Source of the DNA: Escherichia coli O127:H6 str. E2348/69
Lineage (GTDB): Bacteria > Pseudomonadota > Gammaproteobacteria > Enterobacterales > Enterobacteriaceae
Direction: 5' to 3' (one strand)
NCBI RefSeq assembly: GCF_000026545.1
Contig: NC_011601.1
DNA: 64,000 bases
The notes below the pieces were generated by a model, which was not told the origin of the DNA, did not search any database, and was given only the letters and a program-made list of their open reading frames with translations. The translations under genes were made by a program, and so were the position numbers. Numbering within the stretch: the first letter of the stretch is position 1; every line of letters begins with the position of its first letter. This document shows positions 50,352 to 50,506 of the stretch, one piece after another.

Positions 50352-50506
50352 TGGGCACCTCGACAGTGGGGTTAAGAATGTCCTTACTTTACCATAGTTC
50401 TCACTTAAACGCCGAGAACAGGGTGTCATGGCTGTCACATTGCCTGATCGCATATTCGTTATGCTATAGTAGCGCCCCCAATTTACCAGATGCTTAAAAA
50501 GTCGCC

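Follow-up and report, generated by a model that had tools for sequence, protein, structure and literature searches.

DusA-specific integrases, together with a semi-conserved 21-bp att region in the 5′ end of dusA, were described by Farrugia et al. (2015, NAR 43:4547; PMC4482086), and in the general mechanism the dusA-integrating element supplies a replacement dusA 5′ end (PMC4482086). For phage 1720a-02 (Stx2dact), both the integration into dusA and the frame-restoring PhidusA′ were shown experimentally, and the attB of C. rodentium was published as GCTCCCATGCTCGACTGGA (PMC6328086). In E. coli, it is established that dusA is an att hotspot, that Stx and lambdoid phages integrate there and that a 5′ fragment restores the gene. 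A gene-age study has also placed the yjbL-yjbM operon, of unknown function, among young genes (PMC12218254).

The locus analyzed here is the zur-dusA region in a stretch of 64,000 nt, the whole of which is referred to as the window. It adds an example of the known dusA system and not a new mechanism. The target att is the same as that of the elements of Farrugia et al. (2015) and is carried at 50556-50576, but the window differs from their islands in having no integrase, one att copy and a native dusA 5′ end. Compared with the same islands, the K-12 locus has the replaced 5′ end alone, with neither an integrase nor attL, as would be expected of a scar. In the literature searched, no statement was found that the K-12 dusA leader and N-terminus are a fixed element relic, or that yjbLM, an AT-rich segment, was inserted separately at the dusA promoter.

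The zur-dusA Spacer of E2348/69

The window was 100% identical to the sequence of E. coli E2348/69, an EPEC strain of phylogroup B2, and RefSeq lists the same zur and dusA genes. Both coding sequences were supported by the ORFs and by the RefSeq annotation: zur, the zinc uptake repressor gene (49836-50351, minus strand, with CAT at 50349-50351), encodes 171 aa, and the native form of dusA (50507-51502, plus strand) encodes 331 aa. The two genes diverge from a spacer of exactly 155 bp (50352-50506; 47% GC), which is the native Escherichia form and was correctly given in the preliminary description. The statement there that yjbL and yjbM are absent also held, since no DUF2713 homologue was found in any frame across the 64-kb window. 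There was no integrase beside dusA and no ORF in the 155-bp gap, and no Rfam family was found in 49700-52100.

The BLAST breakpoints against K-12-type strains divide the spacer. The zur-proximal part (50352-50419) is common to K-12-type strains, with 84% (83.8%) identity to K-12 and 96% (95.6%) to E. albertii. It is followed by a native-only segment of 133 bp (50420-50552, plus strand), which spans the promoter region and leader of dusA together with 46 nt at the start of its coding sequence. Within this segment, a conserved promoter-upstream stretch, ATTGCCTGATCGCATATTCGTTATGCTATAGTA (50439-50471, plus strand), contains the -10-like hexamer TATAGT at 50465-50470, preceded by TG as in a putative extended -10. 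The motif TATGnTATAGTA was invariant in five of the five aligned sequences, namely those of the window, E. albertii, a second non-coli Escherichia (L007), E. coli HH97 and the phage attR arm. A simple scan of the spacer gave no canonical sigma-70 promoter, so the putative dusA promoter at 50465-50470 is predicted solely from the conservation of TGnTATAGT. The native 5′ coding part of dusA, its first 18 codons (50507-50560, plus strand), is absent from K-12-type strains.

Replacement Relative to K-12-Type Strains

In the alignment against K-12 that the preliminary description had proposed, zur and dusA were not adjacent but 1665 bp apart. This spacer of K-12 MG1655 holds yjbL (b4047, 84 aa) and yjbM (b4048, 235 aa, DUF2713), and the statement that both genes lie between zur and dusA in K-12 was therefore right. 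Among the complete E. coli genomes (n = 5426), 1053 were contiguous and of the window type, and 4303 (∼80%) had the K-12-type segment, which was present in one chromosomal copy in every carrier genome. The zur-dusA difference is a real, common and bimodal polymorphism, and the absence of yjbL/yjbM is ordinary accessory-gene polymorphism between strains.

According to BLAST, the homology between the window and BL21 or K-12 stops at 50419 (after CCGAGAAC) and restarts at 50553. The 133 bp of the window at 50420-50552 had no match in K-12, and their place is taken by 1723 bp in BL21 and 1686 bp in K-12. The two forms differ by the exchange of 133 bp for ∼1.7 kb, and not by an insertion between att direct repeats. 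The right breakpoint falls within conserved DusA codons close to the att core, and the DusA N-termini differ accordingly in the two forms, with 331 aa in the window and 345 aa in K-12 (MHGNSEMQKINQTSAMPEKTDVHWSGRFSVAPMLDW, starting MHGNSEMQK). When the K-12-type and window-type sequences were compared across the junction, they changed from unalignable to 96.7% identity 3′ of it, exactly at the att region; such an abrupt switch at the att core is the signature of site-specific recombination and not of gradual divergence.

Divergence from K-12 was also observed to grow toward the junction over 49585-50419: identity was 91.9% in yjbJ, 95.2% in zur and 83.8% in the left part of the spacer, compared with 97-98% farther away. 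This gradient suggests old, recombination-isolated haplotypes around the indel.

The Locus in Related Genomes

DusA was scanned in species-representative genomes, and at least 80 loci were obtained; E. fergusonii and the cryptic clades lay outside this set. The loci of E. albertii (L006) and of L007, which is ∼91% identical to the window, could each be aligned to the window in one collinear block of 10 kb, and in each the gap is 155 bp. The native 133-bp segment was 95% identical in E. albertii and 87% identical in L007. Among the loci listed, the native DusA N-terminus, M..E....(F/Y)PA(H/Y)RFSIAPM, was common to more than 20 Enterobacteriaceae genera or species, with Citrobacter, Enterobacter, Lelliottia, Leclercia, Kluyvera, Pseudocitrobacter, Kosakonia and Pluralibacter among its holders. 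Since the DusA N-terminus of the window is also that of E. albertii, L007 and many Enterobacteriaceae, the state of the window is ancestral and unoccupied, and the single att copy, combined with the collinearity with E. albertii, likewise indicates an empty site. On these comparisons, the dusA site of the window can be regarded as the empty, ancestral attB of Escherichia, and the earlier suggestion that this strain has the empty site is upheld.

Outside Escherichia, the zur-dusA gap contains a conserved cupin gene (162 aa) and/or a gene for a TraF_2-like outer-membrane protein (∼400 aa), with a GC content of 50-58%. These gap genes were found in Enterobacter, Lelliottia, Leclercia, Kluyvera and Citrobacter (L008-L015 and others) and are unrelated to yjbLM; the gap in Escherichia has neither of them. 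The direct adjacency of zur and dusA is accordingly particular to Escherichia, and the dusA 5′ end is native throughout. No DUF2713 gene was found among the 80 outgroup dusA loci listed.

Use of dusA as an Attachment Site

The 21-bp att region of dusA, CCCCGATGCTTGACTGGACGG (50556-50576, plus strand; core ATGCTTGA at 50561-50568), is unoccupied in the window strain. It matches the cores of phage attP, the C. rodentium attB GCTCCCATGCTCGACTGGA and the 21-bp att of Farrugia et al. (2015), and the claim of the preliminary description that the dusA 5′ end is a known integration hotspot agrees with both studies (PMC4482086; PMC6328086). An insert-bearing genome, in which it had been proposed to look for att, was provided by the window-type strain PMV-1. 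Here, a lambdoid prophage of ∼40 kb joins at the att core in the dusA 5′ end, directly after the position of window 50568 (attL, reading ...CCGATGCTTGA and then TAGGATG) and 16 nt beyond the restart of homology at 50553. A tyrosine integrase gene lies at the far end of this prophage, with its start 88 bp upstream of the restored 345-aa dusA. In the free phages mEp460, SKA5 and Lys8385Vzw, the order at attP is int, -10 motif, leader, dusA 5′ fragment and ATGCTCGA followed by TAGGATGTACC, so that attP reads ...ATGCTCGA and then TAGGATG.

A full-length dusA-family integrase was present in 729 of the 5426 E. coli genomes. The K-12-type leader was matched 54 times in all in IMG/VR contigs, and all 52 evaluable contigs were attL junctions, with the order DUF2713, K-12 leader, dusA 5′ end, core and TAGGATGTA. 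Native and K-12-type 5′ ends are both used as attB.

Further features of these elements were observed. In the PMV-1 prophage at dusA, the Q antiterminator gene is followed downstream by genes for a subtilase-family AB5 toxin binding subunit and a scabin-related ADP-ribosyltransferase (L002:34793-35967). At attP of phage Lys8385Vzw (L093:∼1885-1905), the att core seems to be in tandem duplicate (CCCATGCTCGAATGCTCGATAGG), compared with mEp460 and SKA5.

Homology of the K-12 dusA 5′ End to Phage Arms

The 90 nt at the 5′ end of K-12 dusA, from just before the ATG to the att core, showed 86% identity to the arm supplied by the PMV-1 prophage and 82-84% identity to the attP arms of mEp460, 1720a-02, SKA5, Lys8385Vzw and PhiR40_1/47_1/55_1. 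The integrase gene lies directly upstream of the dusA arm in PMV-1, mEp460, 1720a-02, SKA5, Lys8385Vzw and PhiR40_1. The -10 motif and the core were ∼185 nt apart in K-12 and ∼180 nt apart in the phages, compared with ∼93 nt in the native form. The K-12 leader (CCCCGCTATTGAGCC...ACATTTGAAA, from -10 to ATG) has the length of a phage leader, but it is only weakly similar to the phage leaders. In mEp460, Phi1720a-02, SKA5 and Lys8385Vzw, the layout of int, -10, leader, dusA fragment and core ATGCTCGA is that of the PMV-1 attR, and the length of DusA, 345 aa, is that of K-12; these phages differ from the K-12 locus in having no DUF2713 gene and a leader with weak similarity to that of K-12. Given the weak leader likeness and the lack of DUF2713 in the known phages, the donor would have belonged to a different lineage, unsampled or extinct.

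Phage-type arms were also found in other hosts. A 30-aa MHENKE extension occurs in four outgroup loci, each with an integrase (69-72% identity) ∼180 nt upstream. A locus from another genus (L030) has a K-12-like 5′ end (79% identity over 89 nt) without an integrase and would represent a parallel scar. In Photorhabdus, Yersinia and Proteus, 30-aa extended N-termini were found and an integrase was not detected; given such cases, an element cannot be diagnosed from N-terminal extension alone.

Traces of the element itself were also sought. In five K-12-type variants, tblastn with the PMV-1 integrase revealed no integrase relic (E ≥ 0.18, wrong strand); the K-12 block contained no second att copy (no 21-mer within 7 mismatches); and IMG/VR contained no parent element with a K-12-type leader, the 52 of 52 evaluable contigs being host flanks at prophage attL in K-12-type hosts. 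As neither an integrase relic, an attL copy nor a parent element was found, it is from homology and breakpoint position that the K-12 dusA leader and first ∼30 codons are interpreted as the probable scar of a dusA-targeting element. The idea in the preliminary description that K-12 may carry an element remnant is thus retained for the dusA leader and the first ∼30 codons, which are homologous to the attP arms, but not for yjbL/yjbM, for which there was no integrase relic, second att or phage or plasmid homologue.

In other Enterobacteriaceae, element-type or hybrid DusA N-termini without a detected integrase were noted in L016, L028 and L032 (MHDH.../MQQNKE... with TAFPAHRFSIAPM) and in L030 (HGNSEM...). 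Toxin-antitoxin-like gene pairs lie directly upstream of dusA in L016 (7052-7756), L028 (7278-7926) and L032 (7291-7855), and nothing was found there in L030 (7458-8043). These four loci look like further decayed dusA islands.

Position and Origin of the yjbL/yjbM Block

In most strains that are not of the window type, including O157 and many others, the DUF2713 gene is one intact ORF of 318-334 aa. It is frameshifted in K-12 and BL21, and the two halves in K-12 are annotated as yjbL and yjbM. The GC content of the spacer with the DUF2713 block was 35%, compared with 47% for the native spacer. In K-12-type strains, the promoter-upstream stretch is split, with ...TTGCCTGGTCG on one side of 1.48 kb and TTCCTGTTGTTATGGTATAGTA on the other. 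Projected onto the native sequence, the block borders are separated by only 4 nt (window 50450/50455) and lie 15 nt before the -10 hexamer. Ends lying so close fit a simple, separate insertion and are not predicted by two independent deletions in a large island; the yjbL/yjbM block was most likely a second, separate insertion. No convincing terminal inverted or direct repeats or target-site duplication were found at the block ends.

On visual inspection, the K-12 block had seemed to contain, on the attL side, degenerate remains of the native promoter or leader (CGCATACCTG...GACCAGATGGCAAAAG). This candidate was rejected, given that the native 149-bp segment aligned no better than shuffled sequences (z −0.9 to 2.0).

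Database searches for the block gave no tblastn match to DUF2713 in 50,697 phage records and none in true plasmids, the matches labeled as plasmid being mostly records of 0.65-4.9 Mb, that is, chromosomes. A K-12-like frameshifted yjbL/yjbM copy was observed in the small Klebsiella oxytoca record NZ_CP069917.1 (17,275 bp), also labeled as plasmid, at 3300-4282; the assembly there probably includes chromosomal DNA of E. coli.

The scar without DUF2713 was found only in HH97 (L089:5934-6151) and HH45 (L090:1155-1404), that is, in 2 of the 5426 genomes, both from one Canadian study. These strains have the phage-type dusA 5′ end and spacers of 218 bp (HH97) and 250 bp (HH45). Their promoter-upstream stretch is intact, and upstream of -10 both are collinear with the native sequence: HH97 has TTGCCTGGTCGCATATTTGTTATGGTATAGTA where the window has TTGCCTGATCGCATATTCGTTATGCTATAGTA, and HH45 retains GCTGTCACATT. 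Within the ∼60 nt that precede the -10 motif, the sequences of the two strains are not the same. Both are unlikely to be simple deletion derivatives of the K-12 type, from which the native-like CATA/CATAT (and, in HH45, TGTCACATT) is absent. Searches of metagenomes for the scar-only junction gave 0 exact matches. The HH97/HH45 form may be a relic of the state before insertion, or it may have arisen secondarily.

The DUF2713 Family and Its Alleles

K-12 YjbM matched Pfam PF10897 end to end (E 1.5e-167; 555 bits, with a cutoff of 27). Intact DUF2713 genes of 318-334 aa occupy this locus in O157 and other strains, whereas the window encodes no member. Among 5.8 billion proteins, DUF2713 gave 141 matches, each with an identity of 69% or more to the O157 query, and the family is essentially restricted to E. 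coli. A full HMMER scan showed a few distant relatives with 27-40% identity. Distant relatives such as P0145, P0153 and P0149 (L094-L097, short metagenome or NCBI contigs) were seen beside IS transposases, Hok/Gef, an AIDA autotransporter, KfrA and a SopD/pentapeptide-like protein; these contexts are plasmid- or island-like.

The DUF2713 alleles between zur and dusA are hypervariable (L004:5322-6307, L086:1752-2708, L087:1751-2707 and L088:1751-2755, all K-12-type loci outside the window). They differ by up to 50% at the protein level, with DNA identities of 53-75%, while flanking sequences 100 bp away are 99-100% identical. The dS between alleles was 0.50-0.73, compared with 0.03-0.11 in the adjacent zur, and dN/dS was 0.44-0.53. 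At the N-terminus, 10-aa DATKDKLDNx repeats occur in variable number. Such variation points to allelic lineages that are old or imported and only weakly constrained. The AlphaFold model of DUF2713 was mostly helical and of low confidence (mean pLDDT 62).

Two Proposed Nested Events and Other Explanations

The breakpoints, the states of the outgroups and the homology of the K-12 5′ end to attP arms were all observed directly, and they are probably best accounted for if the window has the ancestral, unoccupied attB and the K-12-type arrangement was derived from it by two nested events. Phages and islands with dusA-family tyrosine integrases recombine at the core ATGCTTGA (50561-50568), and integration displaces the native promoter and the first 18 codons, the element bringing its own promoter, leader and 5′ piece (PhidusA′). 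In the first event, an old dusA-targeting element would have integrated and later been lost imprecisely, a likely route being that the native -10 motif TATGnTATAGTA recombined with the copy carried by the element. The element leader and first ∼30 codons would thereby have remained joined to dusA, so that the encoded DusA has 345 aa and begins with MHGNSEMQK. In the second event, the 1.48-kb block with the E. coli-restricted, hypervariable DUF2713 gene would have entered 15 nt upstream of -10. Both the order of the events and their mechanism are inferred.

A single island could also be envisaged, in which the whole ∼1.7 kb (yjbLM and the phage-like dusA 5′ end) would be a remnant in one piece, the integrase, attL and other cargo having been lost by internal deletions. 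This would suit the right end of the replaced block, which is at the att core, as well as the AT-richness of the block and its absence from the outgroups listed. Moreover, the distant DUF2713 relatives in IS-rich, plasmid-like or effector-like contexts point to a family of mobile cargo, and L016, L028 and L032 have small cargo modules at dusA with element-type N-termini and no integrase. We nevertheless consider a single island rather unlikely. The K-12 block has neither an integrase relic nor a second att, and no decayed native promoter/attL copy was detected inside it (z ≤ 2); DUF2713 is absent from the 50,697 phage records and from true plasmids. The two deletions needed would have to end by coincidence at promoter positions 4 nt apart, and HH97 and HH45 carry the phage-type 5′ end without DUF2713 on a continuous native-type upstream sequence. 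That a single island keeps some probability is due to the rarity of the scar-only form (2 of 5426 genomes; 0 metagenome matches).

The remaining explanations reverse the direction of change and are both very improbable. If the K-12 form were ancestral, E2348/69-type strains would have lost yjbLM; the K-12 type is indeed in the majority (4303 of 5426 genomes), and AT-rich accessory genes are often deleted, but a deletion cannot recreate a 133-bp segment that is 95% identical to that of E. albertii and conserved at the protein level across Enterobacteriaceae, and outgroup Escherichia have exactly the same 155-bp spacer. Alternatively, the K-12-type 5′ end might be a native E. coli allele, from a host of which the phages took PhidusA′. 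The phage arms must stem ultimately from some host dusA, they are 82-86% identical to the K-12 type, and several genera have 30-aa extensions without a detectable integrase. Such a capture is hard to reconcile with the switch of identity at the att core (unalignable to 96.7%), with the short native form in the Escherichia outgroups and close genera, and with the occurrence of the phage arm type beside integrases across distant genera.

Implications for dusA and the zur-dusA Region

If the K-12-type arrangement was derived by the two nested events, the imprecise loss of an integrative element would have permanently rewritten the 5′ end of a housekeeping gene, in a clear and datable case. DusA and its promoter vary from one E. 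coli lineage to another; in K-12, whose protein (345 aa) is in wide use, both the N-terminus and the leader are of the phage type. The K-12 5′ end should accordingly not be presumed native in studies of dusA expression, DusA biochemistry or D20 tRNA modification. The window strain offers a natural comparison and a clean attB for lysogeny by dusA-targeting phages, including Stx phages.

More tentatively, and with greater doubt than belief on our part, repeated lysogeny at dusA may leave heritable scars, so that the promoter of dusA, its leader and the first ∼30 residues of DusA are phage-derived in most E. coli and native in the E2348/69 type, and DUF2713 may be a polymorphic, lineage-restricted cassette kept for a conflict-related function (defence, antagonism or host interaction). 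If both were true, zur-dusA would be a small hypervariable hotspot and not a passive indel.

Other Differences Downstream of dusA

Additional differences were noted in the window beyond dusA. The qorA gene (52043-53139, minus strand) is present as two overlapping ORFs (285 aa and 102 aa); it is annotated as a frameshifted pseudogene in E2348/69 and is intact in K-12, BL21 and PMV-1. At the qorA-dnaB junction (∼53030-53114), the window is without five genes that are found there in PMV-1 (L005:23612-30774). These PMV-1 genes encode an FAD oxidoreductase, an MFS transporter, an enoyl-CoA hydratase, a CoA transferase and a LacI regulator, and they are absent from K-12 too.
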